Shown: positions 17,965 through 54,168, counted from the stretch's first letter. The stretch: 64,000 nucleotides of DNA from an uncultured Prevotella sp. (GCA_964640415.1 CAZXGQ010000002.1:1297-65296); one strand, 5' to 3'. Notes: generated by a model not told the origin, from the letters alone. Translations and numbers: made by a program.

Positions 17965-20900
17965 CTATTCTTTCTTGGTGAGATACTGCATGACGGTCTT
18001 CATAAGGCCATCACGTACAGATTCACTCCTCACCGACTCGAACGGGAACGCGAGCACGCACGTGCGCCAGTTGTCGGTGCCGTTGCCTCCGAACACTATG
18101 CCTGCCGACATGCCGTTCTCCGGGTAACGGAAAGCAGTATAGGCACACGGATCGGCCGGATCAATGGCATCGGGCGACTCCACCACATAGGAGGTGCTGT
18201 TCGGCTTATTATAGTATGTGAACGAGGTCGTGTCGGAAACGAGCGGTGACACTATATAGGCCACTTGTCCGTCGGTGCAGGCACGGTCTTCTCGCCACTG
18301 GTATTTAAGTATCTTCCCGGCAAAGTCACGGTCGGTCTTTTGGCTTTTCGCCCGTGGGTCCGACGTGGCAAGCGGATTCTGCCACAAGTCTGTGCCTACA
18401 TAGGCGCCAGAGACGAACACGGGGCCGCCAGCCTTGCAGAAGGCTGTGAGCAACTGCTGCATGGGCTCGTCGAAGGTCTTGAATGCCAGCGGATGCAGTC
18501 CGGGACGACCAAACTTGGTCTGCTTCTCCTTGCCGAGAATGAGGTCTATGGCTGAATAGGCATCGGTTAGTTGCTTGCCGTCGAATGCATCGCCGCTGCC
18601 GTCGGTCTCAGACAAACCTATTGCCGCACGGCTCTTCGAGACGAAACTGTAGCCGGCTTTCAAAAGGCTTTTGCCGTGGAGAGCCGGATAATCGAATGTA
18701 TTTCCGGCAATGGTTATGCGCTCCTCGTTGCCATAGCTGTCGCCGAAGCCTGACGCATCGTCGTGAGTCCACGGGATGTCGCGCCGGAACTCCTTCATCG
18801 CCCCTACATAGGATATCAGCTCACGGTCGGGCACACCGTTGTCGTTGGCTGCAAGGAATCCGGCAAAATTGTCGTCGCTGCTGACGAAATCGTCGGGGGC
18901 GCTGACGCGGTCGAAACCATTGATGACCAGCACCGGCTTTGCCGTCGTCTTGCCAGACAGGCCCAAAGACATGACTTCCGAGGGCAAGCTCTCGCCTCCG
19001 TCGTTCAATGCTGTAACCTTGAAGCTCACCACTTCGTCCATAGGTATGCTGGTGACGTAAACATTTTTCTTCACCACAGTGCCATTGTCGAAATCGCCGT
19101 CACCTACCCGCTTGTACACCACGAATTGCTTTGCCAGGGCTGTAGGCTCAAGACTGTCGGCCACGGCTTCCCACGTAACGACAGCCTGGTTCTTGTCGTT
19201 CAGAGTGGCGTTGACCGCTTTGACCGGCAGTGGCTGGACAATGTAAGGATAGCCGTATTCGGTGCTGAGGAAGCGGAGAATGCCTTTGTATATAGCGCGG
19301 CCTACAAGGAAACGGAAACGGGGGTCAAGGCCATAGCGCATGTCGGCGAAGTTCTCGTGCGACATGAGCTCAAGCAACATTGCCGGAACGCGCGGCACCC
19401 AAGCCTCAAAATAGCGTTGGTTCCACATTCCGCGGCGCGTCCACTTAGGATCGGCTTGAAGCCTAAGGTCCCGGGTTATCTGTGTTTGCACAAGGTCGCA
19501 CAGGTCGCGGTTGGCATCTCGCGAAGTGCCATCGGCAAACACGCCGCCATATTGCGACGTCTGGTAAATGCCAAGATTGCCGATGATGGAGTCGCCCCTC
19601 ACGGTGCCGGCATCGCTGTGGAAAGCGAACGACAGGGCGACGGGTATGTTCAGTCCTTTGGTGTCGGGACAGGCGCGCGTGCCGCCTGCGAGATAGTTGA
19701 CCCAAATGCCGCGGTCGCGATAGTCGTCGGTATAGTCGTTTGTTCCGTGCGAGGGAGAATATACGCTGTCTGGTATGCCCGCCCATTGCAGATAATAGCG
19801 CGAGCCTTCGAGATAGCGCGGGTAACCGCTCACCTGCGGCACATAGTCGAGCTTCGGCTGATAGGCGTTGCGGTCGCTCTGGTTGTCGCTGCTATGGCCT
19901 TTGGTGTAGGTCGTGATCTTGTCGCCGTCGGCTGTGCGCGCCACGTTGCCCATGCCTCCTCCGAACTTCACAGCATCGGCAGTAAGCACCCTGCCGGCGG
20001 TCTTGCTATAGTTGGTAAGTTCCACAAAGCCGCCGTCGCCCTTGGCGAAACTGAACGTGCCAAGGTATATCCACGTGCCGCCGCCCATGGTCTGGTTGAC
20101 AGAGAAGCGGGTGGTTCCGTCCTTATGGTGAACGGTATAGCGGGCGTCTTCCGTGCTGTTGGGCAACGTCTTGTAGGCCACATAGACGGCATAGCGGCCG
20201 TCTACGGGTATCTTCGGCGTCCACCGTGCCGAGGCATGGACGCTTTCTTTTTTGCTGTTGGTTGTAATCACTTGCCTGAAAGAGCCTTCCGTGAACGGGT
20301 TCTGGAAGCCTGTATACTGCTTGCGGGCATAAGCGAAGCCCGTGCCGTCACCCTGACTCCACGCCTGGGAGCCATTCTGTTCGGAATATGGCGACACGGC
20401 CAGCTTGCCGTCGTTGTCGACCACCACCTCGGCAGGGTTTGTGTCACGCTCGCGGGGCATCATGACATAAGCCCCGGCACTCTCGAGCATCGGGACGAGG
20501 TAAGGCAAGACAAAGCTCTGGGTAAACTTGTCCTCAACGCTCTCGAAGAGGCGCGAGCGCTGCCATTCCCAACGGTTCAACCCCTGCTCGAAATACTTGC
20601 CGTGGCTCTGCCACAAGGCTATATGCTTGTCCTGCAAGCCGTTCTTCACGGAGTAGGGACGGTCGAGATTGGTGACGATGGGCGTAAAAGGCGTATAGCT
20701 GCTCTTGCCCGTATATTCTGCCGGAACATTGTAGAATGCCTTTCTGCGGTCGGCCTTGGCTTTAAAATAGTTGGGTATGAGCGACTGTATGTCGTGCCCG
20801 TTGATATAAAGCGCCAGATGCCTTTGGCGCAACTCGTCGGGCAGACATCCGCTGACAGTCTTCAAAATCTCACCTACGTTGTCGGGGCGCATAGGCACAT

Positions 20901-21114
20901 CCTGCAAGGCTGTGTTGAGGAAAACCTTCACGCTGTCGGCTGACACCGCTGAAGAATCGACCGCTATCTTCCCTACCCTAATGCCTTGCGTGTACTGTCG
21001 CAAAGAGCTGGAAATGGCAGCTGTGGCAACAGGGTTGAGCTTCTCAGCTTGTAAAGGTTGCGCAAACAACATGGTCGCACAACATACAGAAAGAACTTTA
21101 AAGAATGTTCGCAT
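17965..21114 (-). CDS. Large secreted N-acetylmuramoyl-L-alanine amidase family protein with inserted golvesin/Xly-C-like domain
   Basis: 1049 aa with a signal peptide. Amidase_3-like motifs are HIALWQSHG, FHSDAG and LLELMSHEN. The central GGGTWIYLGTFSFAKG segment resembles the golvesin C-terminal-like domain. The domain calls come from motif memory, not a search. Confidence 0.65.
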   Translation of the reverse strand: MRTFFKVLSVCCATMLFAQPLQAEKLNPVATAAISSSLRQYTQGIRVGKIAVDSSAVSADSVKVFLNTALQDVPMRPDNVGEILKTVSGCLPDELRQRHLALYINGHDIQSLIPNYFKAKADRRKAFYNVPAEYTGKSSYTPFTPIVTNLDRPYSVKNGLQDKHIALWQSHGKYFEQGLNRWEWQRSRLFESVEDKFTQSFVLPYLVPMLESAGAYVMMPRERDTNPAEVVVDNDGKLAVSPYSEQNGSQAWSQGDGTGFAYARKQYTGFQNPFTEGSFRQVITTNSKKESVHASARWTPKIPVDGRYAVYVAYKTLPNSTEDARYTVHHKDGTTRFSVNQTMGGGTWIYLGTFSFAKGDGGFVELTNYSKTAGRVLTADAVKFGGGMGNVARTADGDKITTYTKGHSSDNQSDRNAYQPKLDYVPQVSGYPRYLEGSRYYLQWAGIPDSVYSPSHGTNDYTDDYRDRGIWVNYLAGGTRACPDTKGLNIPVALSFAFHSDAGTVRGDSIIGNLGIYQTSQYGGVFADGTSRDANRDLCDLVQTQITRDLRLQADPKWTRRGMWNQRYFEAWVPRVPAMLLELMSHENFADMRYGLDPRFRFLVGRAIYKGILRFLSTEYGYPYIVQPLPVKAVNATLNDKNQAVVTWEAVADSLEPTALAKQFVVYKRVGDGDFDNGTVVKKNVYVTSIPMDEVVSFKVTALNDGGESLPSEVMSLGLSGKTTAKPVLVINGFDRVSAPDDFVSSDDNFAGFLAANDNGVPDRELISYVGAMKEFRRDIPWTHDDASGFGDSYGNEERITIAGNTFDYPALHGKSLLKAGYSFVSKSRAAIGLSETDGSGDAFDGKQLTDAYSAIDLILGKEKQTKFGRPGLHPLAFKTFDEPMQQLLTAFCKAGGPVFVSGAYVGTDLWQNPLATSDPRAKSQKTDRDFAGKILKYQWREDRACTDGQVAYIVSPLVSDTTSFTYYNKPNSTSYVVESPDAIDPADPCAYTAFRYPENGMSAGIVFGGNGTDNWRTCVLAFPFESVRSESVRDGLMKTVMQYLTKKE

Positions 21115-21216
21115 AATAAGGTTATTATTAATGCAAAAGTACAGAAATAGCAGCCGATAGTATCACTTCGACCGCTATTTAACAATTATTTAATTATATT
21201 GTCTATTCCTTTTGCT

Positions 21217-22953
21217 TCAATGCCAATTGGGATTCTGCTTGATTTGCCTATTGAGCAGAATGTCGTTCGACGGTACGGGATAGTGGTAATACTTAGGGCT
21301 GAACGAGCGTGATGCCGCCGTGCCTTTCAAGTATCCGTTGGCATTCTTGTCGGCGTCTGCCACGTTGGAGACATTGGCACCGAGGTTGGCGTTTGGGTTT
21401 AAATTAGTATCCATCTTGTCCATCTGATGCCAGCGCACGAGGTCCCAATAGCGGTAATCGCTGTCGCACATGAGTTCGCAACGGCGGCAACGGCGTATCT
21501 CCCATATCAGGTTGCTCACGCCCATGTTGTTGGCAGGGTCTGCCTCAGGGTTTACGGTCATACCAGGCAGGCCTGCGCGGTGCTGCAGCAAGTTGACACT
21601 CTTGTCGAGGTCGCTCTGACTGACGGTACCAAGTTCGGCCTTTGCCTCGGCATAGTTAAGCAGGACCACAGAATACCAATAGAGAGGAATGTCGGTATAA
21701 CACCCCATCGGGCTTGTGCGGTATTTAATGTCCATCTGCGGGTTGTCGTACTTGTAGATGGTGTAACCTGTAGAGGATGTCATCCGCATCGGCAAGGCGG
21801 CGTCTGGCGACGGCTCGTTGCGTATACATCCATGGCCCTTGAAAGCAAGCACCGAATCGACGAGAAGTTCAAGACGGCGGTCCTTGTTTCTCAGGAAATG
21901 GGAAATGCTGTAGTCGCCGTTGGCGTTCTTCACGGCCTTGTCGTCGGTAGGGAGCGATGTGGTAGCCTTGGGCTTGCCGTCGCGGAAGAGGAACGCGTCG
22001 ACGGCATCCTTGGATATTCCGCTTTGTATCGTCGAGCCGCAGGTATAGTCGCACAATCCATGTGTGAGGATATCCTTTTCGTAATGCTTGTAGAATATCA
22101 CCTCGCTGTTGCCACTAAGGTTGAGCGAGTTGTAAACGGTATAAAGCTTGCTCGGATTGGCGGCGTTCTCGTAGGTGCCGGCCACATCCCAACTGTTGAG
22201 GGCGAACTTGCCTGAGTTGACGAGCTGCTCCGATGCACTGACGCTCTCCCGCAGGAATTTCTGCGCGAGGGTCCGGTCGGCTGCCTTGCCGTTGTCGGCG
22301 AGGGTTCTGTACTTGCAGTAGGTGCCCCAATAGAGGCAGACTTCGCCCTTCATGGCCAAAGCCATTTCCTGGCTCCACAGAGTCTTGTCGGATGGGTTGG
22401 AAGCGAGATTGGCTATGGCGAAGTTCAGGTCATTGAGCACCGAGTCCATGACAACATCCTGGTCGGTACGCGGACCTTTTGTCATGATGCTGTCCTGAGA
22501 GTCGAGATTGCCGTTGATTTCCCACTGCACGTCGCCATACATCTTGGCCAGCTCCGCATAGACATAGGCACGGTTCATCCTGCCAATGGCCTCAAACTTT
22601 TTCTTAGTGGCCTCCGGCAGCGTTGATGTCTTCAGTCCGTTGAGCAGGTTGTTGATGCGGCGTATGTTGGCAAAACGGCCCGACCACGCTGATGCCGTGT
22701 TAGGCACATTGGTGAATGTCCATTTGGAGAACTGCGGATTCACCTGATCGTCGTTGAGGAAATTGAAATAGAAATTGGTGGCTCCGCCATAGTAGGCGTA
22801 GAAGCGGTTGCAGTAGCTCTCAACCAGATTGCCGTTGCTCCAGAAGGCTTCGTTGTTGACAAACATGTCACGGGGATTCTTCTCAAGAATATCGTCGCAA
22901 CTGGTCAACAGCATGGCAAAGCCTGCTATGATATATAATATTATTTTCCTCAC
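21217..22953 (-). CDS. SusD/RagB-family nutrient-binding lipoprotein (no adjacent SusC)
   Basis: 578 aa with a GTG start. The lipoprotein signal is MRKIILYIIAGFAMLLTSC, and the composition is the W/Y/N-rich SusD type. Confidence 0.85.
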   Translation of the reverse strand: MRKIILYIIAGFAMLLTSCDDILEKNPRDMFVNNEAFWSNGNLVESYCNRFYAYYGGATNFYFNFLNDDQVNPQFSKWTFTNVPNTASAWSGRFANIRRINNLLNGLKTSTLPEATKKKFEAIGRMNRAYVYAELAKMYGDVQWEINGNLDSQDSIMTKGPRTDQDVVMDSVLNDLNFAIANLASNPSDKTLWSQEMALAMKGEVCLYWGTYCKYRTLADNGKAADRTLAQKFLRESVSASEQLVNSGKFALNSWDVAGTYENAANPSKLYTVYNSLNLSGNSEVIFYKHYEKDILTHGLCDYTCGSTIQSGISKDAVDAFLFRDGKPKATTSLPTDDKAVKNANGDYSISHFLRNKDRRLELLVDSVLAFKGHGCIRNEPSPDAALPMRMTSSTGYTIYKYDNPQMDIKYRTSPMGCYTDIPLYWYSVVLLNYAEAKAELGTVSQSDLDKSVNLLQHRAGLPGMTVNPEADPANNMGVSNLIWEIRRCRRCELMCDSDYRYWDLVRWHQMDKMDTNLNPNANLGANVSNVADADKNANGYLKGTAASRSFSPKYYHYPVPSNDILLNRQIKQNPNWH

Positions 22954-23190
22954 GCTGGCACTGGTTTTAAATTATTGCCAAAGGGGCCGGAGCAGCCAGA
23001 ATGGTGTCAGAACCAATCCAACAGGTCAGCAACAATGCTACTAAAAGGACAAAAGGTCTTATCATAAGCGTTCAGTCAAAGTAGTATGAATATGGCAAAA
23101 TTAAACAAAAAACTCATTCGGGCTATACTTTTACGGTTATAAAATGTTAAGAGGCTCGTCCGTTTCAAAAAAACGAAATATCATGTGGGT

Positions 23191-23610
23191 TTGTAAAGAA
23201 TTATAGCAAGATTTTAACACTTGAGGGGCACACCATCCAGGACGACCGAAGAGACCCTGAAGTGTTAAAAAGGGAGCCTCCAAGCCGATTTTAGGCCCCA
23301 AAAGCATAAAATCGGGTCGCGATAGTAGCACTATCGCATCGCGATTCTAACGTAAAGGCGTTGCGATTCTAACGTAAAGGCGGCGCGATTCTAACGTAAA
23401 GCCGATTTCGGGAACCATAATTCAGGTCTTATTTTAGGCTGTAAAAATATAACCACCTAACTATTAAGGCGTTATAAAAATCACTCATAAATCGCTCAAA
23501 TGCGCACGAGAGGAAATGTTTTTCAAAAAAATCGATTTTTAGAGAGCCTTTTGTTGAGATTTTTTCACCTCTTACTTGCCTCCCGCTCCACGTGGTCTGT
23601 CGGACGCGCC
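23191..23610 (-). repeat. Copy A of an unclassified structured intergenic repeat family (reverse orientation relative to copies B and C)
   Basis: Hand alignment of its reverse complement with 47206-47729 and 63685-64000. It contains 3 x 22-bp tandem units at 23335-23400, hairpins at 23319-23337 and 23285-23315, and the palindrome AAAAATCGATTTTT at 23526-23539. Confidence 0.85.
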
Positions 23611-23685
23611 AGTACAAAACGCCAGCTACTTGTTAATAGTTGCTAATTATTACCCAGATTCTTTGGTCAGTCGGGATAAATTGTG

Positions 23686-23693
23686 TAATTTTG
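23686..23693 (+). promoter_or_regulatory. Candidate -7 box TAATTTTG upstream of tRNA-Val
   Basis: Exact TAnnTTTG match 44 nt upstream of the tRNA 5-prime end. Confidence 0.4.
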
Positions 23694-23736
23694 CAACCGC
23701 TTTCCAAAAGCAACCGTTTTTAAAACGATTTTTACT

Positions 23737-23810
23737 GTCGGCATAGCTCAGTTGGTTAGAGTATCACCTTGACATGGTGGGGGTCCTTGGTTCGAATCCA
23801 AGTGTCGACA
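23737..23810 (+). tRNA. tRNA-Val (anticodon GAC)
   Basis: GTCGGCATAGCTCAGTTGGTTAGAGTATCACCTTGACATGGTGGGGGTCCTTGGTTCGAATCCAAGTGTCGACA. It has an acceptor stem with one G-T pair, anticodon loop TTGACAT and T-loop TTCGAAT. Confidence 0.9.
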
Positions 23811-23827
23811 CATCTTTCTTAAGGTAA

Positions 23828-23876
23828 CAATAAATTAAGGCGGCGCTCAAGTTATGAGTGCCGCCTTAATTTATTG
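23828..23876. terminator. 17-bp-stem hairpin between tRNA-Val and the convergent Rpn gene
   Basis: CAATAAATTAAGGCGGC ... GCCGCCTTAATTTATTG. The right arm overlaps the last codons of the 23871-24830 ORF. Confidence 0.7.
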
Positions 23877-24830
23877 TTGTTTCACGAATTGTTTGATTTC
23901 GTCAATGCCTAATCCCGTGGCCTGAGAAATCACTTCTACAGGTATATTTTGGGCCAAGAGGTTAAGAGCAATGTTCTTTTTCTCTTCAGCCTTTCCTTCG
24001 GCTCTACCTTCGACCCTACCTTCGGCCTTTCCTTCTGCTCTACCTTGGGTTCTGCCCTCTTCAATGCCCTGCGCCCGTCCTTCGGCCAATCCTTCCAACT
24101 TGGCATTGCCAAGCACGTCGTTTTGTATCATGATGGCATTGAGGTGCTCGTCGTAGGCATGGCGCTCCGCGTCTGACATCTCATAATATTTCAACTTCTC
24201 GCGTGCCTCCTGCAGCCCCGGCGTCTTGGTATCAGGAGAGATTTCTCCATTCTTAAGATAATTTACCCATTCCTCCAATGGCGACACAGCAACCTTGTTA
24301 AACTCGTTGACACGCACAAGAATATACGTGGGGAATATCTCTGACGGCGATTTCCTCACAATGTTGTTCTTTTCCTTCGCGCTTATCACGAGCCGGTCTT
24401 TGGTGTGAAGCCCTACAAAGTTGTTCTGGCCAATGTAGATATAGTCGGAACCCTTGCCAAGGTCGAAATAAAGTATACTTATGGAGTATACCTTCTTTAC
24501 CTCTTTATAACTGTTTCCAAGGTTGATGTGCTCGGTTATAGCCTTTGCAACACCGTAGAGCACACGCTCAAGGTAGTATAGCTCGCTCGTGTTTTGTATC
24601 TCCACGATGATTATCTCGCCTTTGCTGTTCTTTGCCTTGATGTCGACGCGGTTGAACTTGTCGTCTTCCCTTTGCTGGTTTCCTTCACTTTCAAGTATCT
24701 CCATTATCTTCACCTCTTCGTTCAAGAAGACGGTGAGGAATCCTTCCAGCACGCCAAAGTTGGCCTTCTGGCGGAGCAACCGCTTTATTGCCCAGTCGAA
24801 GCGTATGTATCTGTCTCTAAGTTCTGTCAT
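23871..24830 (-). CDS. Rpn/YhgA-like PD-(D/E)XK recombination-promoting nuclease (putative transposase family TIGR01784)
   Basis: 319 aa. The N-terminal FDWAIKRLLRQKANFGVLEGFL and D...EIQ nuclease core are typical of the family. The C-terminus has the family's repetitive EGRAQGIEEGRTQGRAEGKAEGRVEGRAEGKAEE tract. Confidence 0.85.
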   Translation of the reverse strand: MTELRDRYIRFDWAIKRLLRQKANFGVLEGFLTVFLNEEVKIMEILESEGNQQREDDKFNRVDIKAKNSKGEIIIVEIQNTSELYYLERVLYGVAKAITEHINLGNSYKEVKKVYSISILYFDLGKGSDYIYIGQNNFVGLHTKDRLVISAKEKNNIVRKSPSEIFPTYILVRVNEFNKVAVSPLEEWVNYLKNGEISPDTKTPGLQEAREKLKYYEMSDAERHAYDEHLNAIMIQNDVLGNAKLEGLAEGRAQGIEEGRTQGRAEGKAEGRVEGRAEGKAEEKKNIALNLLAQNIPVEVISQATGLGIDEIKQFVKQQ

Positions 24831-24946
24831 GGCGAAAACCTCCTTCTATATCGTTTATGCTTTATCGTTTGCAAATATACTGCTTTTTCGCTATACTCTA
24901 AACATTTAACGTAAAAAACAAAACTGGCAGAGAACGCAAAAACATA

Positions 24947-24979
24947 AAAAGCGGCTCCCGCATGATGAGAGCCGCCTTT
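24947..24979 (-). terminator. Rho-independent terminator after the GH53 gene
   Basis: GCGGCTC ... GAGCCGC stem. On the minus strand it is followed by TTTTTATGTTTTT. Confidence 0.65.
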
Positions 24980-24989
24980 AATGTTGGCA

Positions 24990-26093
24990 TTATTCATTAA
25001 GGAACTTCTTCATTTCCCCGAATGACGGCAAGGCTTTTCCAGTTGCATTGTCGAACAAGCCTCGGTTGAGCCAACTCTTGATTTGGGTGTTTCCCGACTC
25101 GTTCTCCTCGGGGAACCACCAGAACAAGCCCGTGACCTGAGGATGCTTGTTGAGTTCCTCCACAAGGTCTCTGGTAAAGGATGTCTGACCTTCAACGCTG
25201 ATGGGATAAAACTCTGAGAACTCGTCCGCACTCTTCGCCCACTTGTCGTTCTTATGGGAATAGTAGGCGGCTGCTTCCACTATCATGATTTGCTTGGCAG
25301 GATAACGCCGGGCAAGATTGTCGAGTGTGTTGTGGAGCACGGGAATGCGGTCGTGCCACATGGGATAATAGCTCAACCCGATGATGTCGTAGTCGAGGTT
25401 GACTGTTGCCAAGCGGTCATAGAACGCCTTGGTGTTGTCCCATTTTCCGGCCTGCTCCGTATGGATGATTATCTTTGCCTTGGGACAAATTTCCCGACAA
25501 GCCTTGCAACCTTGTTTCAGCATGGCAATGAACTCCTGCCAGTTGGCGTCTTCTGTCGGTGTGGTCTTCGCCGTCGGCCAAAGCATGCCGAAACTGATTT
25601 CATTGCCCACCTGTATGAGGTCAGGTTCTGCTCCTGCATGCTTCATGGCGAGGAGGCTCCGCTTGGTGTATTCGTAGACACTGTCGGCGAGAGCTTCAGC
25701 CGATGCACCTTTCCACGCTGCCGGCGTGAATTGTTTTCCGGGGTCTGCCCACGTGTCACTATAATGGAAATCGAGCATCAGCTGGAACCCAGCTTTCTTG
25801 ATGCGTTTGCCCAACTGCCTGACATAGTTGATGTCCTGACAAACGCCCTCCGCCTTGTGCTCGTCGGGAGCCTGGTCCGGGTCAACGAAGAGGCGCAGGC
25901 GCATCGCGTTCCATCCCTCTTTCTTGAACAGTTTGAGCGCGTTCATCTTCTTGCCGTTGGCATCACGGTAGGCCGTTCCGGCCTGCTCGTACTTCGTGAG
26001 CATGGAGATGTCGCCGCCAAGGAGGCGTTGCTGGGCAAACGAGCCTAACGACCCCATGACGGCAAGCGCCAATGATATGATTGTCTTTTTCAT
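24990..26093 (-). CDS. GH53 arabinogalactan endo-beta-1,4-galactanase
   Basis: 367 aa with a signal peptide. GGDISMLTKYEQ, VQVGNEI-like IQVGNEISFG and the FWWFPE catalytic-region motifs are characteristic of GH53. Confidence 0.85.
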   Translation of the reverse strand: MKKTIISLALAVMGSLGSFAQQRLLGGDISMLTKYEQAGTAYRDANGKKMNALKLFKKEGWNAMRLRLFVDPDQAPDEHKAEGVCQDINYVRQLGKRIKKAGFQLMLDFHYSDTWADPGKQFTPAAWKGASAEALADSVYEYTKRSLLAMKHAGAEPDLIQVGNEISFGMLWPTAKTTPTEDANWQEFIAMLKQGCKACREICPKAKIIIHTEQAGKWDNTKAFYDRLATVNLDYDIIGLSYYPMWHDRIPVLHNTLDNLARRYPAKQIMIVEAAAYYSHKNDKWAKSADEFSEFYPISVEGQTSFTRDLVEELNKHPQVTGLFWWFPEENESGNTQIKSWLNRGLFDNATGKALPSFGEMKKFLNE

Positions 26094-26105
26094 GTGTTGT
26101 CATCT

Positions 26106-26143
26106 AAAAATGATGGCGACTCTTCTCGCGAAAAGCCGCCATC
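26106..26143 (-). terminator. Candidate terminator between the SusF-like gene and the GH53 gene
   Basis: GATGGCG ... CGCCATC stem with an 18-nt loop. On the minus strand it is followed by ATTTTTAG. Confidence 0.45.
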
Positions 26144-26181
26144 GAAATGGATGTTATTTATTATTGATGAAGCAAAAGCAC

Positions 26182-27591
26182 TTATTTCACCTCAGCGGCA
26201 CCGGTCGTGAAGTTCAGGTATGCCTTCTGACCAGCGCTCACGTTCAAGCGAGCTTGGTCGCCGCCCTTGCCACGGTAATCGATCTTGCCGTTGGCAATGA
26301 TGAACTCTGTCTTCCACCAGCCGTCTGGGTCAATGCTGACACACATGCGGAGCTCTGCATCCTTGGCAAAAGCAGGAGACACGAATTGGCCATCCTTCGT
26401 TGTCGGCACGGTGAACTTGTGGCTTGCGTCGACGTTCCACTCGCCGGCAGCATCGCCAATCAAGTAAACGTTTGGCTCAAGGACCTCGAATATACGCTCT
26501 GTGCCATTGGTGACATGGAGAAGGTACCAGCCTGCCTTGCCTGCAACGAGGTTGCCGTCGGCACTGCTTGTGATGCCTGCACCTGCCACGTCCTTGACAG
26601 TGGTGTCGGTATAACCGAAGTCGTTGCCCCAGCCTGCCTGAGGAGCGAACTTGAACTGCTCGCCTTCTGCCAGATACACTACTGTCCAGAACTGGTCGTC
26701 GGTACCGTAGATTGGAATCAACTGCCTCCAGTCGCTCCAGCTGTATTCGCTGCCGGTCATGTACAGTTCTGTAGGCGCAGCCTCAATAGAGTAGGTGTAG
26801 TCCATCATGTTGATGGTCAAGATATACTTGCCAGCCTTGGCAATCTTGCCTGCACCGCAACCTTCGTTGACCAATGAACCGCTCATGGAGTCGTCGCCGT
26901 CTACGGAAGGACCCACAACACCCGGGTTAGCCCAGAATTCGCCATCCACGTTCTCCTGTGGGATGATCTTCCAGTACTGGTTGTCGGCAGTGGTCTCGAA
27001 CGAAACCTTGAACACAGGGTCGTCGTACACATTGTCGTCGCTGTGGGTGAACTTAACCATGCTACTGGCATCCCAGCCCAACATGTCGCCTACGAGATAG
27101 TAAGCTGAAGAGATGTTAGGCTTAACCAATGTGACCAATGTCTGAACTTCGTTAGACTTGGCATAGAAGGCCTGGCCGTTCTGCTTCAGCGATGCGACCA
27201 CTACGGTTTGCAATGTGCGCTGCTCAGGTGCCTTGCCATAGAGAGATTCAACCACACTTACCAAGTCGGCCTTTGCCACCTTACCGGTGGTGCTGGCATT
27301 GATTTCCTGTTTGCTGACTATGTTGCCGCTCTCGTCTGCCTTTCCCAGCTCCACCTTATAGCTAACCACGCTCATTGGGTCTTGACTTTCAATGGAAGCC
27401 GTGAACAAGCTGATGGAGTCGGCGTCTACCGTGGCCATGTCGATGGCTGAGGCAGGAGTTACCGTAAGGGCAACATTCTTGGCCTCATCCTGTGGGTATC
27501 CCTGCGGGTCTGCCCAGTCGTCGTAGTCGCCCTTGCAACTGCTGAAGAGTGCAGTTGCGAGGACCATACCATATATTAATGACTTTTTCAT
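26182..27591 (-). CDS. SusF/SusE-family outer-membrane starch-binding lipoprotein
   Basis: 469 aa with lipobox ALFSSC and repeated W/Y-rich beta-sandwich modules. It sits after the SusE-like gene in a susCDEF-type order. Confidence 0.75.
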   Translation of the reverse strand: MKKSLIYGMVLATALFSSCKGDYDDWADPQGYPQDEAKNVALTVTPASAIDMATVDADSISLFTASIESQDPMSVVSYKVELGKADESGNIVSKQEINASTTGKVAKADLVSVVESLYGKAPEQRTLQTVVVASLKQNGQAFYAKSNEVQTLVTLVKPNISSAYYLVGDMLGWDASSMVKFTHSDDNVYDDPVFKVSFETTADNQYWKIIPQENVDGEFWANPGVVGPSVDGDDSMSGSLVNEGCGAGKIAKAGKYILTINMMDYTYSIEAAPTELYMTGSEYSWSDWRQLIPIYGTDDQFWTVVYLAEGEQFKFAPQAGWGNDFGYTDTTVKDVAGAGITSSADGNLVAGKAGWYLLHVTNGTERIFEVLEPNVYLIGDAAGEWNVDASHKFTVPTTKDGQFVSPAFAKDAELRMCVSIDPDGWWKTEFIIANGKIDYRGKGGDQARLNVSAGQKAYLNFTTGAAEVK

Positions 27592-27615
27592 TATTCAAAT
27601 GCTTTTAGAGTGTTA

Positions 27616-28806
27616 TTACTTGCTGTAGAAGTGGTAGTAACCGGTGATGTCGTTGAAGATGACGGTGTAAGAACCTGCCTTGACAGGAATGTTGGCACCG
27701 TTGTTGGCACCCCATCCGTATGGGAAGCCGGAGCCACCCCAGTTAGGATTCCATGAGCTGTCTACGAGGAACTTCACTTCTGTGTCGGTATCTGTTGTCA
27801 GGTCATATTTCCAGACGTGTGGCTTGGCGCCTGCCCAAGTGTCAACAGGAGTCATCTGCGTGTCTGTGCCCCAACTGTTGAATCCGCCGGAGATGCACAT
27901 TGTGGCATACTCTGCAGGCTCATTGTCGGCAGCCACGATAGAGAGGCTGTTGGTCTTGGTGTTCAGCGTGATGGTGTAGTAACCCGGTGAAGGAACCTTG
28001 AAGTCGCCGCCTTCGCCGCTGTCGTCCTTCTTCTTAGGCTGAGTGATGTCGCCGTCGGTGCCGCCCCACTGGTCTGCCCATTCGCCTGGAGTCTTCACAA
28101 TCTTGAAGCCACCGAGGTCTGAGGTGAAGTAGCCGGTGTAGGTGAGCACGCCCTGACCTGTAGTCTCGTCGTAGGTCTCGCCCTCAACAGGGCACATTGG
28201 GAACACGGCTGTACCAATCTCCGAGCCCCAGCTACCATCACCGACGCAAGCACCGATAAGGTACCAAAGCTCCGGGTCGGCAGCAGTCAAAGCCTGGTAG
28301 AACGGCTTGACGTTCAGCTTGACAACGTTGGAAAAGCACTCATAACCAGAAGAGAGAGTGGCCCTCATCCTTACATATACATCGACGTTGGAAGGCAATT
28401 CTGCTTCGGAAGAATATCCGCCCATCTTCATCACAGCCTTGTTGATGGCAGCAGCGCTGGCATTGGTCTTGGCCTTGTTTGAGTAGCCGTCCAATTCCAT
28501 GTAGTTGGGTGTTTCAGCGGCATTGCCGTCGGCATCCACGGCTTCGGTCCAGTTGTCTGTCAGCGACACCTGTGTATAGTATGACACGGCAGCGGTGAAG
28601 CCGTAAGCCGGCTGGCTGTATGTCAACTCCAGCGAGTCGCTGTTCGCCAGGTCGTATACGTTGCCTGCATAAGCCGGTGTGTTGAGCACGAAGCTCTCAG
28701 GCTGGCTGATTGTCGGGTTTGAATCATTGTCGTCTGCGCAAGACGTGAAGCTGAATGCTGCGACACAGGCGAACAATGACGCTAAAATATATTTTTTCAT
28801 GTTCAT
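27616..28806 (-). CDS. SusE-like outer-membrane lipoprotein
   Basis: 396 aa with lipobox FSFTSC. The N-terminal SusE-type segment (FVLNTPAYAGNVYDLANSDSLELTYSQPAYGF) lies directly downstream of susD. Confidence 0.8.
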   Translation of the reverse strand: MNMKKYILASLFACVAAFSFTSCADDNDSNPTISQPESFVLNTPAYAGNVYDLANSDSLELTYSQPAYGFTAAVSYYTQVSLTDNWTEAVDADGNAAETPNYMELDGYSNKAKTNASAAAINKAVMKMGGYSSEAELPSNVDVYVRMRATLSSGYECFSNVVKLNVKPFYQALTAADPELWYLIGACVGDGSWGSEIGTAVFPMCPVEGETYDETTGQGVLTYTGYFTSDLGGFKIVKTPGEWADQWGGTDGDITQPKKKDDSGEGGDFKVPSPGYYTITLNTKTNSLSIVAADNEPAEYATMCISGGFNSWGTDTQMTPVDTWAGAKPHVWKYDLTTDTDTEVKFLVDSSWNPNWGGSGFPYGWGANNGANIPVKAGSYTVIFNDITGYYHFYSK

Positions 28807-28821
28807 TTATTCTTTAAATGA

Positions 28822-30447
28822 TTAATAACCAGTGTTCTGCTTCAGGTTCGGGTTGTTGGACAACTCGTTGACTGGCAATGGGAAGATGTTCATGTAGCTT
28901 GGGAACTGGTTGCCCTCGTAGGTGCCACCCATCCATTCCCACTTGTACTTCGACTGTCCGGCAAACTTTCCGAAGCGGATCAGGTCCATGCGGCGACGGC
29001 CTTCAAGCCAGAACTCACGGCTCCACTCGTCGCAAACCTCGTCGAGCGTGTAAGTGTTCTTCAGTGTGGCGTTGGCACGTTCACGGAGCTTGTTGATTTT
29101 GGCTGCTGCGTCGGTGTTGCCTGCAGCTCCGTTCTTGCGGATGGAGGCCTCGGCATAGGTGAGGTATGCCTCTGCGATACGCATCACAGGAAGGTCGGTG
29201 TTCACGAATTCAATCACGTCGTTGCTGCTGCCGTCGGAGTTCACATTGCGGAACTTCACACTTGAGTAGCCGAGGTTTTCGTCGGTACCTTCGTCGGTCA
29301 CCGATTCGCTGATGCCCTGGTTGAAGAACAATGCGCGGTCGTCGTTGGCGGCTGTGGTCATATCCTTCAGTGTGGCTGCCTCGGCTGGTGTGCCGGTAAA
29401 GAACTTGTCTACCAGCTGCTTGCGCAAGCGGATACACTTGCCCCAGCTGTTGTTGGCACCGGAAGGAGCGTAGCTGTCAGTAGAAACCTTGTTTGAGTAT
29501 GCGGCCTGAACGAGGAAGTTGGTACCGCCGTAGCTCTTGGTCTTGACACCGTCGAAGAGACCCACAACGAGGTTCTCATACTGTGCACCGTTCTTGTTGT
29601 TGTCTGCCAAGAACAGCATCTGGTATGGAGAGTAAACCTCGCCGGTAGTCGGGTTGACCGAGCCGGTTTTGTTCAGGTGGTAGTAGCCGTCGTTGATTAC
29701 CTTCTCGGCATATGTCATGGCATCGTCCCAGCGGGCTGTACCAGTATAGACCTCTGCATTCAGGTAAAGGCGGGCAAGCAGGTTCCATGCGGCCACACGG
29801 TCGGCACGGCCGTAGGTTGTGGCGCCCGGCTCTGCCATCTTCTCAGCACAAGCTTTCAGCTCGCTCTCCACATAGTCGAACATCTGCTGGCGGTTGTAGT
29901 AGGCGGCCTTCTCTGAAGACACGGTCTCGGTGAATGCACCACCACCGTAGAGGTCCATGACGTCATAATAGTTCAAGGCACGGATGAAGCGAACCTCAGC
30001 GTTGCGCTGCTCGGCATCAGATGCCTTAACGTCCTGCTGCAGATAGAAGTTGCAGAGGGTGATGGTGAAATAGAGGCGGCTGTAGAGGGCTGCTGAGAAT
30101 ACGCAGCTCTCACCCCATGCGTTGTGCAGCAACTCGGGGATACCGGCGTCGGTAGCCCATACCCAGTGAGCCTCGTCAGAGGTAAACTCGTTCAGATACC
30201 ACTTGCTGCGGAAGTAGTCGGAACGGCCCTCATCCACATCCTCGATATCGCCGTTGCCTGAAGGGCCCGACTGGCCTGTAAGGCTGAAACTTGCATAGAT
30301 CTTGTTGAACAAGGCATCTCCGTCAAGCTCCATCGTCTGCTGCGGGTTGATAGGATCCACATCCAGGTCACCCACACAAGAGGTCATGCCCAGAGTGAGT
30401 GTCAATGCTGCAGCAGGTATGATTTTTTTCAATATATTCATTTTCAT
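28822..30447 (-). CDS. susD: SusD-family starch-binding lipoprotein
   Basis: 541 aa with lipobox LGMTSC and a SusD/RagB fold composition. It is immediately downstream of susC. Confidence 0.9.
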   Translation of the reverse strand: MKMNILKKIIPAAALTLTLGMTSCVGDLDVDPINPQQTMELDGDALFNKIYASFSLTGQSGPSGNGDIEDVDEGRSDYFRSKWYLNEFTSDEAHWVWATDAGIPELLHNAWGESCVFSAALYSRLYFTITLCNFYLQQDVKASDAEQRNAEVRFIRALNYYDVMDLYGGGAFTETVSSEKAAYYNRQQMFDYVESELKACAEKMAEPGATTYGRADRVAAWNLLARLYLNAEVYTGTARWDDAMTYAEKVINDGYYHLNKTGSVNPTTGEVYSPYQMLFLADNNKNGAQYENLVVGLFDGVKTKSYGGTNFLVQAAYSNKVSTDSYAPSGANNSWGKCIRLRKQLVDKFFTGTPAEAATLKDMTTAANDDRALFFNQGISESVTDEGTDENLGYSSVKFRNVNSDGSSNDVIEFVNTDLPVMRIAEAYLTYAEASIRKNGAAGNTDAAAKINKLRERANATLKNTYTLDEVCDEWSREFWLEGRRRMDLIRFGKFAGQSKYKWEWMGGTYEGNQFPSYMNIFPLPVNELSNNPNLKQNTGY

Positions 30448-30470
30448 AAAGCTTCTACATTATTATATAA

Positions 30471-33400
30471 TTAGAAATTCAAGTTGAGGCCGAAGACGCC
30501 CGTGAATGGGCGCGGATAGATGTTTCCGTCGTAGCCGCCGTTGATTTCCGGGTCGATGCCCTTATACTTTGTGATGGTAAACACGTTCTGTGCTGTGGCA
30601 TATACACGGCCACTGACTGGAAGACCAAACAGCTTTTCGAAGCTATAGCCCAACGTGATGTTGTCACACTTCAAGAAAGATGCGTTCTGGATGAAATAAT
30701 CAGACAGTGCGTCTTCCGTTGACACATACTGCCAGTTCTTCGGCATGGTCATGTCGGTCACGTTGTGCCATGTGTTGCCGTTGTAGAGGCGTTCCACCGA
30801 GATGTTCGAACGGCCAGCCTCCACTGCATTGTATGCGTAGTTGCCGAGGCTTGCACGGAGCGAGAAGCCGAAGTCCCAGTTTTTGTACATCAGCTTTGAG
30901 CTGAAGCCCATCACCACGTCTGCGTCTGCCTTCTTGTAGAAGTAGCGGTCGGCAGAGTTGATGACACCGTCGCCATTGCGGTCAACAAACTCGCCCTCGA
31001 CAGGCTGTCCGTCCTTGTCGTAGACCTGCTGGTAGGTGTAGTAGGCCGATACAGGGTGGCCCACTGCCCAAGCCTGGATACCGTCAGAACCAGAGTCGCC
31101 TACGGCAAGACCGCCGTGGAGAATCTTGTAGCTGGCATCGTCGCTGGCCACGAGCTTGTCGATGTTGTTGAGGTTGTATGTGAGATTGTAGTTCACCTCC
31201 CATCTCCAATCCTTGGTCTGGACAGGACGGATAGTTGTAGAGAACTCGAAACCTTGGTTGTGAAGCTCACCGATGTTGCTTGTCACCTTGTTCTTGAAGT
31301 TGCTGCCGGCAGAAACGTATACAGTATTGATCAAGTCGGTGGTCTTGCGATAATAGTAATCGAAGCTGGCGGTGATGCGGTCTCTCAGGAAGCTAAGGTC
31401 GAGACCTGCGTTCCATGTTGTGGTCTTCTCCCATGTGAGGGCATCGTTGTATGCATCCGGACGGTAAGTTGTGCCGTCGCCCACGATTGGATAGTAACCT
31501 CCGAGACCGTTTGTGGTATATGAGGCGAAGTAGGTGTAGTCGCCGATGCCTTCCTGCTGGCCGGTCTTACCCCAACCGAGACGGAGCTTCATGTCGGACA
31601 CGGCATCCACATTGCGGAGGAACGACTCTTCCTTGATTTTCCAGGCTGCTGCCACTGATGGGAACAAGCCCCAGCGGTTGTTCTTGTGGAAACGTGAAGA
31701 ACCGTCGTCACGCAGGGTGAATGTCAGCAAGTAGCGATCTGCCAATGAGTAGTTCATGCGGCCGAAGAAGGATACGAGATAGTTCTCGGTCTTGTAGAGA
31801 GTGTTCTCAGACGGGTCCTTGATTTCACCGGCGTGCTCCTTGTTGGTGCTGGGATATGTGCCGTAGTAATAGTAGTCGGTCTTCTTGTGGAAGTGCTGGT
31901 ACTCGTAGCCTGCCATCACGTCGAAGTGGTGGATCTTGGCAAAGTCCTTCAGATACTGGGCATACATGTTGAGCGACAGGTTGTAGGTGTCCTGCGTGTT
32001 CCAGCCCTGGCTGCCATAATAATAGTTGTCGTAGTTGTAGCGGCTGTAGTACTTGTTGCTCTTACCGCTCTTCAAGTCCATACCGCCGTTCACGTGGAGG
32101 TGCAAGTCCTCGAAACCGTGGATCTTATAGTCGAGCTCCAGGTTGCCGCTCAACTCCTTGCCCTTACCCTTGTCGTCGGATGTGTTGAGATAAGCCACCG
32201 GATTGCGGGTTGAGAGTGAGTTGATGGAGTATTTCCAGGAGTCGTCGTTGCGGTCTACCGGACTGCTGTACTGGAAGTATCCGCCGAAATTCTGGTTGTA
32301 GAACTCGCTGTCGATGGTCACGGGCTTTGTCGGGTCCATCTCGCCGGCTGCGCCGATGGCGCTGGTGTTGGCATATGATGTCTTAGAGTACATGCCCTTG
32401 GCGTTGAAGTTCACGGTCAGGTGATCATTGAAGAACGTTGGGTTCAAGTTCACGCTGGCAGTGTAACGCTCGAAGTCGGATGTCTTCAAGATACCCTGCT
32501 GGTTGGTATAACCGAAAGACACACGGTATGGCAGGTTCTTCACTGCACCTGTCAACGTGATGTTGTGGTCGGTGGAAACGGCAGTGCGGTAGATCTCATC
32601 CTGCCAGTCGGTATTGGCGAAGAGATGCTGTGCGCCGCTGGCCGGAGTGCCGTCCGAATTGTATGCGCTCCAGTAGCCCAGGCTCTTGTAGTAGTCGCTG
32701 TTCTCCCATTCCTCTCCGTCGAGTCCGCTTCTTTGCTTTACGAAGTTGATGAATTCGTCTGCGCTCAGCACGTCGAGCTTGTTCTTGACTGTGCTCACGG
32801 AGACATTGCCGTTATAAGAAATGGTTGGCTTCATGTTCTTGCGGCCCTTCTTGGTGGTGATGATGATCACACCATTTGATGCACGGCTACCGTAGATGGC
32901 GGTGGCGGATGCGTCCTTCAAGACTGTGAAGCTCTCGATGTCGTTAGGGTTGACGAGGTTCAAGGGGTTAGACATACCCTGCATGCCATAGTTGTCCATG
33001 GCAAGACCGTCGATTACGATCAACGGGTCGTTGGAGGCGTTCAATGAAGAACCGCCACGGATGCGGATAGATGCGCTGCCGCCAGGCTCACCGCCGCTGT
33101 TCATGACGTTCACACCGGCAATCTTACCCGTGATCATGTCCTGTGCACTCACTTGGAGTCCCTTGTTCTTGTCGTCCGGCTTGATGGCCGTGACAGAACC
33201 CGTCAGGTCGTTCTTCCTGGCAACACCGTAACCGATGACCACGACCTCGTTCAAGGCCTTGGAGTCGTCGGTGAGGGTGATGACTGCGCCGTCAGATGCT
33301 GACAACTTCTGCGGTGTCATGCCGACATAGGAGATGGTAATCTCGGTGCCCGGCGCCACGTTAATGGAGTAGTTACCGTCGAAGTCGGTCACGCCCACGG

Positions 33401-33566
33401 CCTTGCCGTTGGCAGTGATAGTAGCGCCAATGACTGGTTCACCGGTAGAGTCTTTCACATGTCCCTTGACCGCATTAGTCTGCGCCCAAGAGCTTACAGC
33501 CAACAGCAGCCCGCCGGTAAGGACGAGGACCCTGCGAGGCATCTTGAATTTTACCTGCTTCATCAT
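30471..33566 (-). CDS. susC: SusC-family TonB-dependent outer-membrane transporter
   Basis: 1031 aa. It has a carboxypeptidase-regulatory-like N-domain (VKGHVKDSTGEPVIGATI), a plug (TonB box / NEVVVIGYG) and a C-terminal ...GLNLNF ending in an aromatic residue. Confidence 0.9.
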   Translation of the reverse strand: MMKQVKFKMPRRVLVLTGGLLLAVSSWAQTNAVKGHVKDSTGEPVIGATITANGKAVGVTDFDGNYSINVAPGTEITISYVGMTPQKLSASDGAVITLTDDSKALNEVVVIGYGVARKNDLTGSVTAIKPDDKNKGLQVSAQDMITGKIAGVNVMNSGGEPGGSASIRIRGGSSLNASNDPLIVIDGLAMDNYGMQGMSNPLNLVNPNDIESFTVLKDASATAIYGSRASNGVIIITTKKGRKNMKPTISYNGNVSVSTVKNKLDVLSADEFINFVKQRSGLDGEEWENSDYYKSLGYWSAYNSDGTPASGAQHLFANTDWQDEIYRTAVSTDHNITLTGAVKNLPYRVSFGYTNQQGILKTSDFERYTASVNLNPTFFNDHLTVNFNAKGMYSKTSYANTSAIGAAGEMDPTKPVTIDSEFYNQNFGGYFQYSSPVDRNDDSWKYSINSLSTRNPVAYLNTSDDKGKGKELSGNLELDYKIHGFEDLHLHVNGGMDLKSGKSNKYYSRYNYDNYYYGSQGWNTQDTYNLSLNMYAQYLKDFAKIHHFDVMAGYEYQHFHKKTDYYYYGTYPSTNKEHAGEIKDPSENTLYKTENYLVSFFGRMNYSLADRYLLTFTLRDDGSSRFHKNNRWGLFPSVAAAWKIKEESFLRNVDAVSDMKLRLGWGKTGQQEGIGDYTYFASYTTNGLGGYYPIVGDGTTYRPDAYNDALTWEKTTTWNAGLDLSFLRDRITASFDYYYRKTTDLINTVYVSAGSNFKNKVTSNIGELHNQGFEFSTTIRPVQTKDWRWEVNYNLTYNLNNIDKLVASDDASYKILHGGLAVGDSGSDGIQAWAVGHPVSAYYTYQQVYDKDGQPVEGEFVDRNGDGVINSADRYFYKKADADVVMGFSSKLMYKNWDFGFSLRASLGNYAYNAVEAGRSNISVERLYNGNTWHNVTDMTMPKNWQYVSTEDALSDYFIQNASFLKCDNITLGYSFEKLFGLPVSGRVYATAQNVFTITKYKGIDPEINGGYDGNIYPRPFTGVFGLNLNF

Positions 33567-41351: not shown

Positions 41352-41611
41352 AGTGTATGTGTTTTAGTTTCCTGTATCGAAATGCACACCGCTTATAAAT
41401 AAGCCTTTTGTGTGAGCGTGCTGCAAATATGCCGCGGATATGGGGACAAGCAACGATAAGCAAACACGCACTCTACGAGTGCAAAGTTAATGGTTTACAA
41501 AGAAAATGCCAAATGAAATACAGCAAATAAAGATAAAAATCCATAAGAGCTGATTACATCTTTTGGCAATACTTTGATTTTAGATTAACTTTGTGGGAAA
41601 ATGCAAGGACA

Positions 41612-47729: not shown

Positions 47730-47765
47730 TAATGCTGTCCGGATTACCGTCGGGCATAAAAAACG

Positions 47766-47801
47766 CCCCTGCTTGTGTGTTGAGTACCACACAAGCAGGG
47801 G
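47766..47801. terminator. 14-bp-stem bidirectional terminator
   Basis: CCCCTGCTTGTGTG ... CACACAAGCAGGGG. On the minus strand it is followed by CGTTTTTTATG, downstream of the chrA pair. On the plus strand it is followed by TGTCTTTTG. Confidence 0.75.
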
Positions 47802-47891
47802 TGTCTTTTGTCCGACATTAGGAATGACGTGCCGTTTGGCAACCGTTTGGGGCAGCCCCCCATGCACCACGCTCCACAGGAGCTCCAAAGC

Positions 47892-49018: not shown

Positions 49019-49034
49019 CGTTGAAAAAAAATAA

Positions 49035-49067: not shown

Positions 49068-49088
49068 CGTAGGGATATTAAATTGCTT

Positions 49089-54166: not shown

Positions 54167-54168
54167 GC

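Follow-up and report, generated by a model that had tools for sequence, protein, structure and literature searches.

A mosaic intergenic repeat with three invariant tandem sites recurs in the genome of an uncultured Prevotella

BOX elements of Streptococcus pneumoniae are modular intergenic repeats, often located just after genes, in which a tandem middle module (boxB) of variable number lies between boxA and boxC. They are predicted to form stable hairpins and are co-transcribed with their neighbors, and no transposase of their own is known. REP (repetitive extragenic palindromic) and ERIC (enterobacterial repetitive intergenic consensus) repeats are essentially single palindromes. Within the Bacteroidales, Porphyromonas gingivalis carries 19 copies of BrickBuilt, a minisatellite-bearing MITE (miniature inverted-repeat transposable element) composed of a leader of at most 285 nt, head-to-tail units of ~22-23 nt with conserved and variable positions, and a tail of at most 318 nt (Klein et al. 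2015, PMC4596501). The element is predicted to form secondary structure, many copies are transcribed by read-through from a neighboring gene, and segments of it show promoter activity (PMC4596501). Here we analyze a family of intergenic repeats in a 64,000-nt stretch of genomic DNA of an uncultured Prevotella (GCA_964640415.1 CAZXGQ010000002.1:1297-65296; hereafter the window), whose dGTPase is 78% identical to that of named Prevotella species. Judged by the published description of its architecture, BrickBuilt is the closest known element, a parallel that the preliminary description of this DNA had not drawn.

That description had reported three copies (A, B and C) of an unclassified, structured, non-coding intergenic repeat, a characterization that held on each point tested. 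Homology and the above-chance recurrence of long words bore out the places and orientations of all three copies (Table 1). The exact 16-mer TTTACGTTAGAATCGC occurs nine times, three times per copy at 22-nt spacing, against a chance expectation of 0.38 when up to three mismatches are allowed; a 29-mer from block 2 occurs three times and a 34-mer from the tail twice, each against zero expected. Tandem Repeats Finder reported a period of 22 with 2.8-3.0 copies at all three unit arrays, in agreement with the proposed three head-to-tail 22-bp units per copy. A fourth copy, D, lies outside the window, which gives four copies per 81 kb of contiguous sequence, or ~1 copy per 20 kb in the 81 kb examined. 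(A-D denote the four repeat lineages, and L-numbers denote contigs or loci compared with the window.) Pairwise identity is 84% for A-C and A-D, 80% for A-B and 78% for B-C, with an overall range of 78-84%. The element has a length of ~400 nt, or ~480 nt in its terminator-bearing form, and a G+C content of 41%, versus 52% for the window; a repeat search of the whole window found no second large repeat family. Three independent short-read contigs (L011, L050 and L055) all break off on precisely the final base of the 29-mer common to the copies, which is the assembly signature of a multi-copy repeat. Taken together, these results confirm that the repeat family is real.

The blocks follow a single order in every copy: an A-rich head, a conserved 55-nt stretch that includes a small hairpin (block 2), a variable spacer of ~100 nt, three 22-nt units, two hairpins, a long hairpin and a 44-nt conserved tail ending in TTTACAA. 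Conservation along this order, expressed as mean pairwise identity among the four lineages, is 0.90 in block 2, 0.64 in the spacer, 0.92 in the unit array, 0.81 in the two short hairpins, 0.74 in the 5' arm and loop of the long hairpin, and 0.93 in the tail. Block 2 had been described as a nearly invariant block of ~70 nt; a conserved block does exist, but the part shared by all four lineages measures 55 nt, and the conservation extends to 72 nt only between A and C. The unit number, counted in nine sequences of the four lineages, is exactly three throughout. All 27 units of these sequences carry the exact 16-mer, whereas their 6-nt linkers vary (NNYGCS). Because the linkers vary, homogenization of the units cannot explain the identical 16-mers, and we infer that their identity reflects selection on the sequence itself.

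Orthologous sites in relatives were found to lack the element, which had not been noted before. At the site of copy C, the stop codons of the dGTPase and acetyltransferase genes are 15 nt apart in L059 (dGTPase 93% identical), compared with 635 nt, including copy C, in this genome; L057 (dGTPase 87% identical) has unrelated spacer DNA there. At the site of copy B, only 2 nt separate the M20 and M23 peptidase genes in L013, and the DNA of L016 is unrelated there. In L059, a block 2 of ~78% identity does occur at a different locus, on the mraZ side of an acyltransferase gene and at a contig end. Empty orthologous sites, combined with a diverged head elsewhere in a relative, indicate that the family disperses, and these comparisons, together with the contig breaks and the negative genome scans, show a young, lineage-restricted, multi-copy family located at different sites in close relatives. 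The family is also more than a local duplication, the outcome that the preliminary description had named as refuting it: the blocks of copy D follow the order seen in the others, and a diverged copy stands at another locus in a related species. In another reading, the copies would be passive remnants of a recent segmental duplication, or recombination scars, with neither function nor mobility of their own. Their position near synteny breaks, with B at the edge of a ~10-kb block that is absent between the M20 and M23 genes in relatives and D adjoining a strain-variable region, is consistent with such an origin. Invariant internal blocks in the face of 16-22% overall divergence, flanks without shared homology, and the copy at another locus in a related genome all speak against it, and we find it hardly credible.

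We then compared the element with known classes. As the preliminary description had held, it matches no known insertion sequence (IS) end, MITE or clustered regularly interspaced short palindromic repeat (CRISPR). Self-comparison of the extended copies on both strands revealed no terminal inverted repeats of at least 10 nt between the ends, and the IS5-type repeat GAGACCTTTGCA gave only chance-level matches, none near a copy. Flank comparison revealed no direct repeat common to the copies that could represent a target-site duplication; the sole candidate, TTGGCAACCGT at copy B, lies outside the conserved ends. Both absences had been proposed earlier and stand. The element shares with MITEs its small size, lack of coding function, multiple copies, intergenic position and absence at part of the orthologous sites, but fails as a MITE on terminal inverted repeats and target-site duplication. 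A CRISPR array was rejected, as the units abut with only 6 variable bases between cores, where unique spacers of at least 25 nt would be expected, and no cas domains were found in the 20 of 43 large open reading frames (ORFs) of the window that were scanned against Pfam, the set to which all domain-level statements here refer. An integron attC site was rejected because the long hairpin, TTTTAAC...GTTAAAA, fails the first and last positions of RYYYAAC...GTTRRRY, and no integrase was found in these ORFs; the resemblance of the tail hairpin to dif/Xer-like and attC-like sites is only partial. An iteron-type replication origin was dismissed in view of the absence of any blastn match in 72,556 plasmid records and of an adjacent rep gene. 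We also considered a Tn7-like transposon in which A and B would form the inverted ends and the units would be TnsB-type sites; it was ruled out, since there is no 5-bp duplication despite an outer TGT..ACA and since the 24.5 kb between A and B consists of core genes whose order is conserved in relatives. Finally, an rRNA-operon leader or a promoter cassette for downstream genes does not fit copies B and C, which lie between convergent genes.

The architectural likeness to BrickBuilt is extensive. Both are Bacteroidales elements that are species-restricted, strictly intergenic, non-coding and multi-copy, and both consist of a non-repetitive leader, abutting units of ~22-23 nt and a non-repetitive tail, with some copies lacking one end module. 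No sequence homology was detected in the one part compared, the terminal repeat, and the likeness is otherwise one of described architecture. BrickBuilt is bounded by 12-nt IS5-type terminal inverted repeats (GAGACCTTTGCA), in some cases with target duplications, whereas the new element has neither; BrickBuilt has 1-22.8 units per copy, whereas the new element always has three, with an invariant 16-nt core; and the B/C form of the new element carries its own terminator. BOX elements, which are shorter, resemble it in their modular build, tandem middle module and intergenic location, but they belong to another phylum and have another sequence, and are a looser analog than BrickBuilt. A further comparison concerns palindrome-associated transposable elements (PATEs, IS200/IS605-type) and REP doublets forming hairpins (REPINs), which likewise have no terminal inverted repeats and no target duplication. 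The new element has hairpins ~15-20 nt inside its ends (H2 on the head side, the long hairpin on the tail side), but these are unrelated to each other in sequence, whereas in PATEs and REPINs one TnpA dimer recognizes similar hairpins at both ends. A conserved target tetranucleotide, as a PATE-type origin would predict, could not be defined, and no TnpA, RAYT or Y1 transposase gene was seen among the scanned ORFs.

We therefore describe the element as a mosaic interspersed intergenic repeat with an internal minisatellite (leader, tandem units, tail). We do not class it as a MITE, and we claim no membership in the BrickBuilt kind, from which the absence of terminal repeats and duplications, the fixed three units, the invariant 16-mer and the terminator in two copies set it apart. 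The explanation we favor, at about even confidence, is a lineage-specific, non-autonomous dispersed element mobilized in trans, with invariant blocks that serve protein recognition and with passive transcription. On this explanation, the element would have spread to many intergenic sites as a non-autonomous cassette, its invariant blocks being recognized by a trans-acting protein, most likely the enzyme behind its movement, such as a recombinase or transposase whose gene lies elsewhere in the genome. The three 22-bp units, two helical turns apart, could bind that protein on one face of the DNA, and the B/C form would supply a terminator both for the read-through transcript and for the convergent gene.

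Several observations weigh against mobilization in trans. Beyond the missing terminal inverted repeats and target duplication, no mobility machinery or mechanism was found: the scanned ORFs of the window include no transposase or integrase gene, and the only mobility-gene candidates in the window are a PDDEXK_2 gene and a YhcG nuclease gene. The constant number of three units departs from the variability of BrickBuilt. An exact junction between filled and empty sites could not be defined from the L059 and L057 spacers because the flanking spacers are too diverged, and the element ends are approximate since only four lineages were seen. Restriction to one lineage, by contrast, counts in favor: exact-pattern scans gave no match among 185,579 species-representative genomes and none in Joint Genome Institute (JGI) metagenomes, although the absence from genome collections could in part reflect assemblies that break at the repeat. 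Blastn found no similarity in 72,556 plasmid records and none in phage records, and three scans of viral contigs gave no match. A bolder version, which we consider unlikely, is that the element represents a new type of self-spreading cassette without terminal inverted repeats or target duplication, whose three sites and end hairpins would be recognized by a site-specific recombinase or other enzyme encoded elsewhere, and/or that it delivers a structured RNA of ~350 nt to the 3' ends of genes; with its three identical 16-nt sites, this RNA would serve an RNA-binding protein as sponge or scaffold.

The surroundings of the copies suggest how they might be transcribed. Copy A is preceded on the same strand by the PDDEXK_2 gene with its terminator and by an antisense tRNA-Val gene, and is followed by a same-strand SusD-like gene. 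The core of copy B begins ~160 nt past the stop codon of the M20 peptidase gene and faces a convergent chromate-transporter gene. Directly after the dGTPase stop codon begins the inserted DNA that includes copy C, with the core 78 nt after the stop and a convergent acetyltransferase gene downstream. In copy D, the A-rich head begins ~10-16 nt past the stop of a 366-aa gene, and a pyridoxal phosphate (PLP)-decarboxylase gene follows 215 nt further on the same strand. All four copies are thus co-oriented with their upstream gene, and B, C and D begin 10-140 nt after a same-strand stop codon with no terminator in between, A being the exception. Co-orientation and the absence of an intervening terminator in B, C and D make read-through transcription likely, and the element is probably transcribed in this way as a structured 3' untranslated region.

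The same surroundings bear on a function in DNA. In such a reading, the 22-bp sites and the AT-rich palindrome of the element would bind a host transcription factor or nucleoid protein, and the element would act as a regulatory or architectural module that controls or insulates its neighbors, such as the SusD-like gene at A, the PLP-decarboxylase gene at D or the mraZ side in L059. Exact 16-mers at 22-bp spacing are indeed typical of operator and iteron arrays, A and D lie upstream of co-oriented genes, and promoter activity has been described for BrickBuilt segments (PMC4596501). However, B and C have nothing downstream to regulate, lying as they do between convergent genes, and the absence of the element at the same sites in close relatives is at odds with conserved regulation. 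Furthermore, a distance of 130-195 nt separates the units from the end of the tail, and beyond the element the genes that follow carry TAATTTTG boxes of their own. We consider a regulatory or architectural module rather improbable.

To describe secondary structure, the hairpins were compared between copies. Four local hairpins are kept in all of them: that of block 2, GCGAT../..ATCGC, CCGATTTYA/TRAAATCGG and the long TTTTAACACTT/AAGTGTTAAAA. Hairpin cells are paired in 92.9% of cases, versus 32-52% when the partners are slid. Double-sided changes are present at three pairs, with intermediates at two of them (A-U, G-U and G-C in block 2; U-A, U-G and C-G); this covariation is statistically weak, as 43 of 500 shuffles matched it. 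Within the 55 nt of block 2, A and C differ at only two positions, and these are partners in one pair. Preference for a strand is slight, with 344 of 369 cells paired on the forward strand versus 334 of 369 on the reverse. We conclude that the hairpins are likely to be under selection; the present evidence does not distinguish RNA from single-stranded DNA, or one strand from the other.

Conserved hairpins are also what the main rival to a mobile element would predict, namely a family of paralogous small RNA (sRNA) genes encoding a structured RNA of ~330-400 nt with three units and hairpins. The B/C transcript would end at the shared terminator, and with its three 16-nt sites the RNA would capture a protein or target RNA repeatedly, as a sponge or scaffold. 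Several features fit: a homologous strong terminator ends both B and C, conservation of the local hairpins includes three compensatory pairs and a number of G-U intermediates, the only two A/C differences in block 2 face each other across one pair, and the forward strand is the slightly better paired one. Segatella copri provides a precedent with 63 non-coding RNAs (ncRNAs) of 75-477 nt (bioRxiv 10.1101/2024.04.05.588293), and such Bacteroidota paralogous sRNAs resemble the element in size range, intergenic location, lineage restriction and, for two copies, a terminator at the end. The difference lies in the signals at either end, since the element has no canonical -7 box and the terminator is missing from copies A and D. 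The box in use at promoters of this genome is TAnnTTTG: 23 of the 51 intergenic TAnnTTTN sites in the window end in G and lie upstream of genes or tRNAs, and the -7 box described for Segatella copri fits this pattern (bioRxiv 10.1101/2024.04.05.588293). No TAnnTTTG box was found on either strand in any copy. The spacer contains a conserved island, GGTTAT.TTTTT, that resembles the box in its TAnnTTT part but continues with T or A, not G. Inspection by eye and a consensus scan of block 2 and the tail gave no convincing match to σ54, extracytoplasmic function (ECF) or σ70-type promoters. Also unfavorable to sRNA genes are the weak covariation and marginal strand preference, and the fact that conservation is highest in the unit cores and the tail, where it concerns sequence and not pairing. 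No Rfam match was obtained: at gathering score, the window contains only four tRNAs, and permissive scans of A, B and C returned only sub-threshold generic hairpin matches, on the terminator. This also agrees with the earlier view that the element is no named RNA motif or riboswitch. We regard sRNA genes as an unlikely explanation; they are not mutually exclusive with a mobile element, as such a gene could also disperse as a cassette.

The possibility of a coding function was examined as well. Open frames differ between copies, as had been proposed. An exact look-up of eight spurious ORFs in a collection of 15 billion proteins found none present, a phmmer (HMMER) search with the 62-aa ORF in the head region of copy A against 1.84 billion representative proteins returned a single chance match, to a real repeat protein, and a protein query concatenated from the translations of all six frames was uninformative. 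The only frame of note is in the tail, where a small protein of ~40-56 aa (MxFxPxIGLxAPFLTLQ..CAPQVLKSCY..) could start at the ATG in CGATTTYATG. This frame is open and indel-free over at least 38 codons in A, C, D and one B strain, and the ratio of non-synonymous to synonymous polymorphism (pN/pS) is 0.43-0.77 in five of six comparisons. Two B sequences, window B and L010, however, have an in-frame stop at codon 14, and the overall pN/pS range reaches 1.02 (0.43-1.02), so that no ORF is conserved in all copies under purifying selection. The ten most conserved codons have no synonymous change and the changes in D are non-synonymous, which points to constraint at the nucleotide level; the C-termini enter non-homologous flanks and differ in length, and neither the look-up of the ORFs nor the search with the head ORF lends the protein any support. 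A small protein is therefore very improbable.

Table 1. Positions of the repeat copies and their parts (window coordinates unless a contig is named)
Feature	Coordinates	Strand	Remarks
Copy A, whole	23191-23609	-	core, head and block 1
Copy A core	23191-23557	-	common core, TCAACAAAAGG to TTTACAA, 367 nt
Copy A head	23558-23580	-	A-rich (..AAGAGGTGAAAAAATC), weak homology to other copies; 5' boundary approximate (alignment columns 23-48)
Block 1, copy A	23581-23609	-	small hairpin motif GCGCGTCCGACA-N7-TGGAGCGGGA; common to B only
Block 2, copy A	23486-23557	-	hairpin UC-U-AAAAA-UCGAU-UUUUU-U-GA and palindrome AAAAATCGATTTTT
22-nt units, copy A	23340-23401	-	three; invariant 16-nt core TTTACGTTAGAATCGC and variable 6-nt linker
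Hairpin GCGATAGT-GCT-ACTATCGC, copy A	23319-23337	-	shares the register of the units; resembles a degenerate fourth one
Hairpin CCGATTTTA-N13-TAAAATCGG, copy A	23285-23315	-	one pair U-A, U-G or C-G between copies
Long imperfect hairpin TTTTAACACTT...AAGTGTTAAAA, copy A	23212-23270	-	outer stem 97% paired
Conserved tail GGTGTGCCCCTCAAGTGTTAAAATCTTGCTATAA.T.TTTACAA, copy A	23191-23234	-	mean identity 0.93
Copy B, whole	47206-47812	+	block 1 through terminator extension
Block 1, copy B	47206-47234	+	starts 6 nt past the M20 peptidase stop codon
B-specific stretch, block 1 to head	47235-47340	+	no counterpart in A, C or D
Copy B core	47363-47729	+	
22-nt units, copy B	47520-47585	+	three
B/C 3' extension in B	47730-47812	+	ends in bidirectional terminator, stem 47763-47804
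Copy C core	63743-64000	+	cut by the window end; continues past the window
22-nt units, copy C	63895-63959	+	three
Copy C, completed core	L012:11417-11783		from a near-identical contig
Copy C, completed with extension and terminator	L012:11417-11865		from the same contig
Copy D	L060/L061:18109-18502		~4.2-4.6 kb left of window position 1; block order as in A-C

The ends of the element vary between copies. Block 1 (GCGCRTCCGACA-N7-TGGAGCGGGA) had been described as clear in A and B and weak in C; it is indeed clear in A and B, but it is absent from C and also from D. Its distance to the core is 23 nt in A and ~130 nt in B, and its membership in the element is uncertain. The ~20 nt of A-rich sequence 5' of the core are weakly homologous between copies. 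The GCGATAGT/ACTATCGC hairpin, also part of the preliminary description, is present, but in full length only in A, with 6 bp in B and D and seven of eight pairs in C, where there is an internal U-U mismatch. At the other end, B and C share ~85 nt past TTTACAA, an extension that had not been noted before. It ends in a homologous terminator, CCCCTGCTTGTGTG..CACRCAAGCAGGGG, that is absent from A and D and consists of a GC-rich hairpin with T-runs on both sides, strong and able to act in both directions.

Some further sequences near the copies are worth recording. About 12 nt past the tail of copy A, at 23162-23180 on the minus strand, TTTCGTTTTTTTGAAACGG repeats the block 2 core TCG.TTTTTTTGAAA and may be a degenerate second head. 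Copy B with its terminator is bracketed by an 11-nt direct repeat, TTGGCAACCGT, at 47303-47313 and 47836-47846, ~50 and ~30 nt outside the conserved ends, and a 7-nt TCCGACA recurs at 47212 and 47809; no equivalent of either repeat was seen at A, C or D.

Gene content around the copies was also recorded. Copy B is at the left edge of a ~10-kb region between the M20 and M23 peptidase genes (47730-57360), which contains two chromate-transporter genes, purL, an ompA-like gene, yitT and genes for a hydrolase and a PDZ protease; M20 and M23 converge directly in three related species. Copy A falls within a region (17965-33566) that includes a galactan-type polysaccharide utilization locus with SusC (30471-33566), SusD (28822-30447), SusE/F-like genes and GH53 (24990-26093). 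Beyond these genes come the PDDEXK_2 'transposase-like' gene (23871-24830), the tRNA-Val gene on the opposite strand (23737-23811) and then copy A, past which are an orphan SusD-like gene without a SusC partner (21217-22953) and the gene for a 1049-aa Golvesin_C protein. The YhcG/DUF1016 PDDEXK nuclease gene (41591-42739) is located between a CYTH gene and prfB, where relatives have only a 64-aa gene. Approximately 1.1 kb past copy D (locus 19650-21548), the same-species strains represented by L060 and L061 differ in gene content, with a 422-aa gene and a WYL-domain gene in one strain and a SASA-domain gene in the other.

Other arrays with a period of 22 were encountered during these comparisons. 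At the B site of relatives whose M20 gene is 84% identical, L017:5066-5271, L018:5066-5249 and L019:3515-3720 hold a different 22-nt minisatellite. Its unit, CGCCGTACGTAAGATGCACACA, is present in four copies in L017 and L019 and three in L018, and has the core TACGTWAGA in common with the element units; the array ends in a hairpin of unit sequence. Between a GNAT gene and the next gene, L020:150-560 (minus strand) has ~12 tandem 22-nt units AAACCTTTACGTTAGAAGGGGT with the 13-nt core CTTTACGTTAGAA that is also found here. A broad class of TACGTWAGA 22-bp arrays was considered and rejected: a degenerate three-unit scan gave 29 mixed period-22/period-11 minisatellites, about background, of which only L020 shares the longer core CTTTACGTTAGAA. 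Long runs of 22-nt palindromic units, for example TTTTCTTACGTAAGAAAA and TTTCCGTGCGCACGGAAA, form an unrelated multi-copy family in other metagenomes (L023-L048; ERZ7729xx, ERZ7730xx and ODVX01 contigs). Within the window, the purL-ompA spacer contains an imperfect period-22 repeat, AATCACAGTGCGATTACAAAGC, in 2.2 copies (53061-53108), unrelated in sequence to the element. In the Bacteroidales metagenome-assembled genome (MAG) SIG155 (L005:1-650, L006 and L008:4020-5403), the 5' region of a multi-copy PDDEXK_2 (Rpn-like) gene is conserved over ~390 nt and contains the block 2 23-mer AAAAATCGATTTTTTTGAAAAAC, with copies at contig ends. Kinship with this repeat was rejected: the shared AT-rich 23-mer was judged a coincidence because unrelated phyla also gave hits to this pattern within coding sequence.

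Prevotella and Segatella rank with the most abundant bacteria of the gut, and their non-coding and mobile DNA is almost undescribed. If the density of ~1 copy per 20 kb held genome-wide, extrapolation would give on the order of a hundred copies. The element visibly breaks short-read assemblies and marks gene-order differences between close relatives, and thus affects MAG quality and probably genome rearrangement. Even if it were merely a decaying selfish repeat, it would still be useful as a marker for strain typing and assembly diagnosis. The invariant 16-mer, present three times per copy, provides a bait for a DNA- or RNA-binding protein in an organism with few genetic tools, and a dispersed element without terminal repeats or duplications may point to a mobilization route new to the Bacteroidota.

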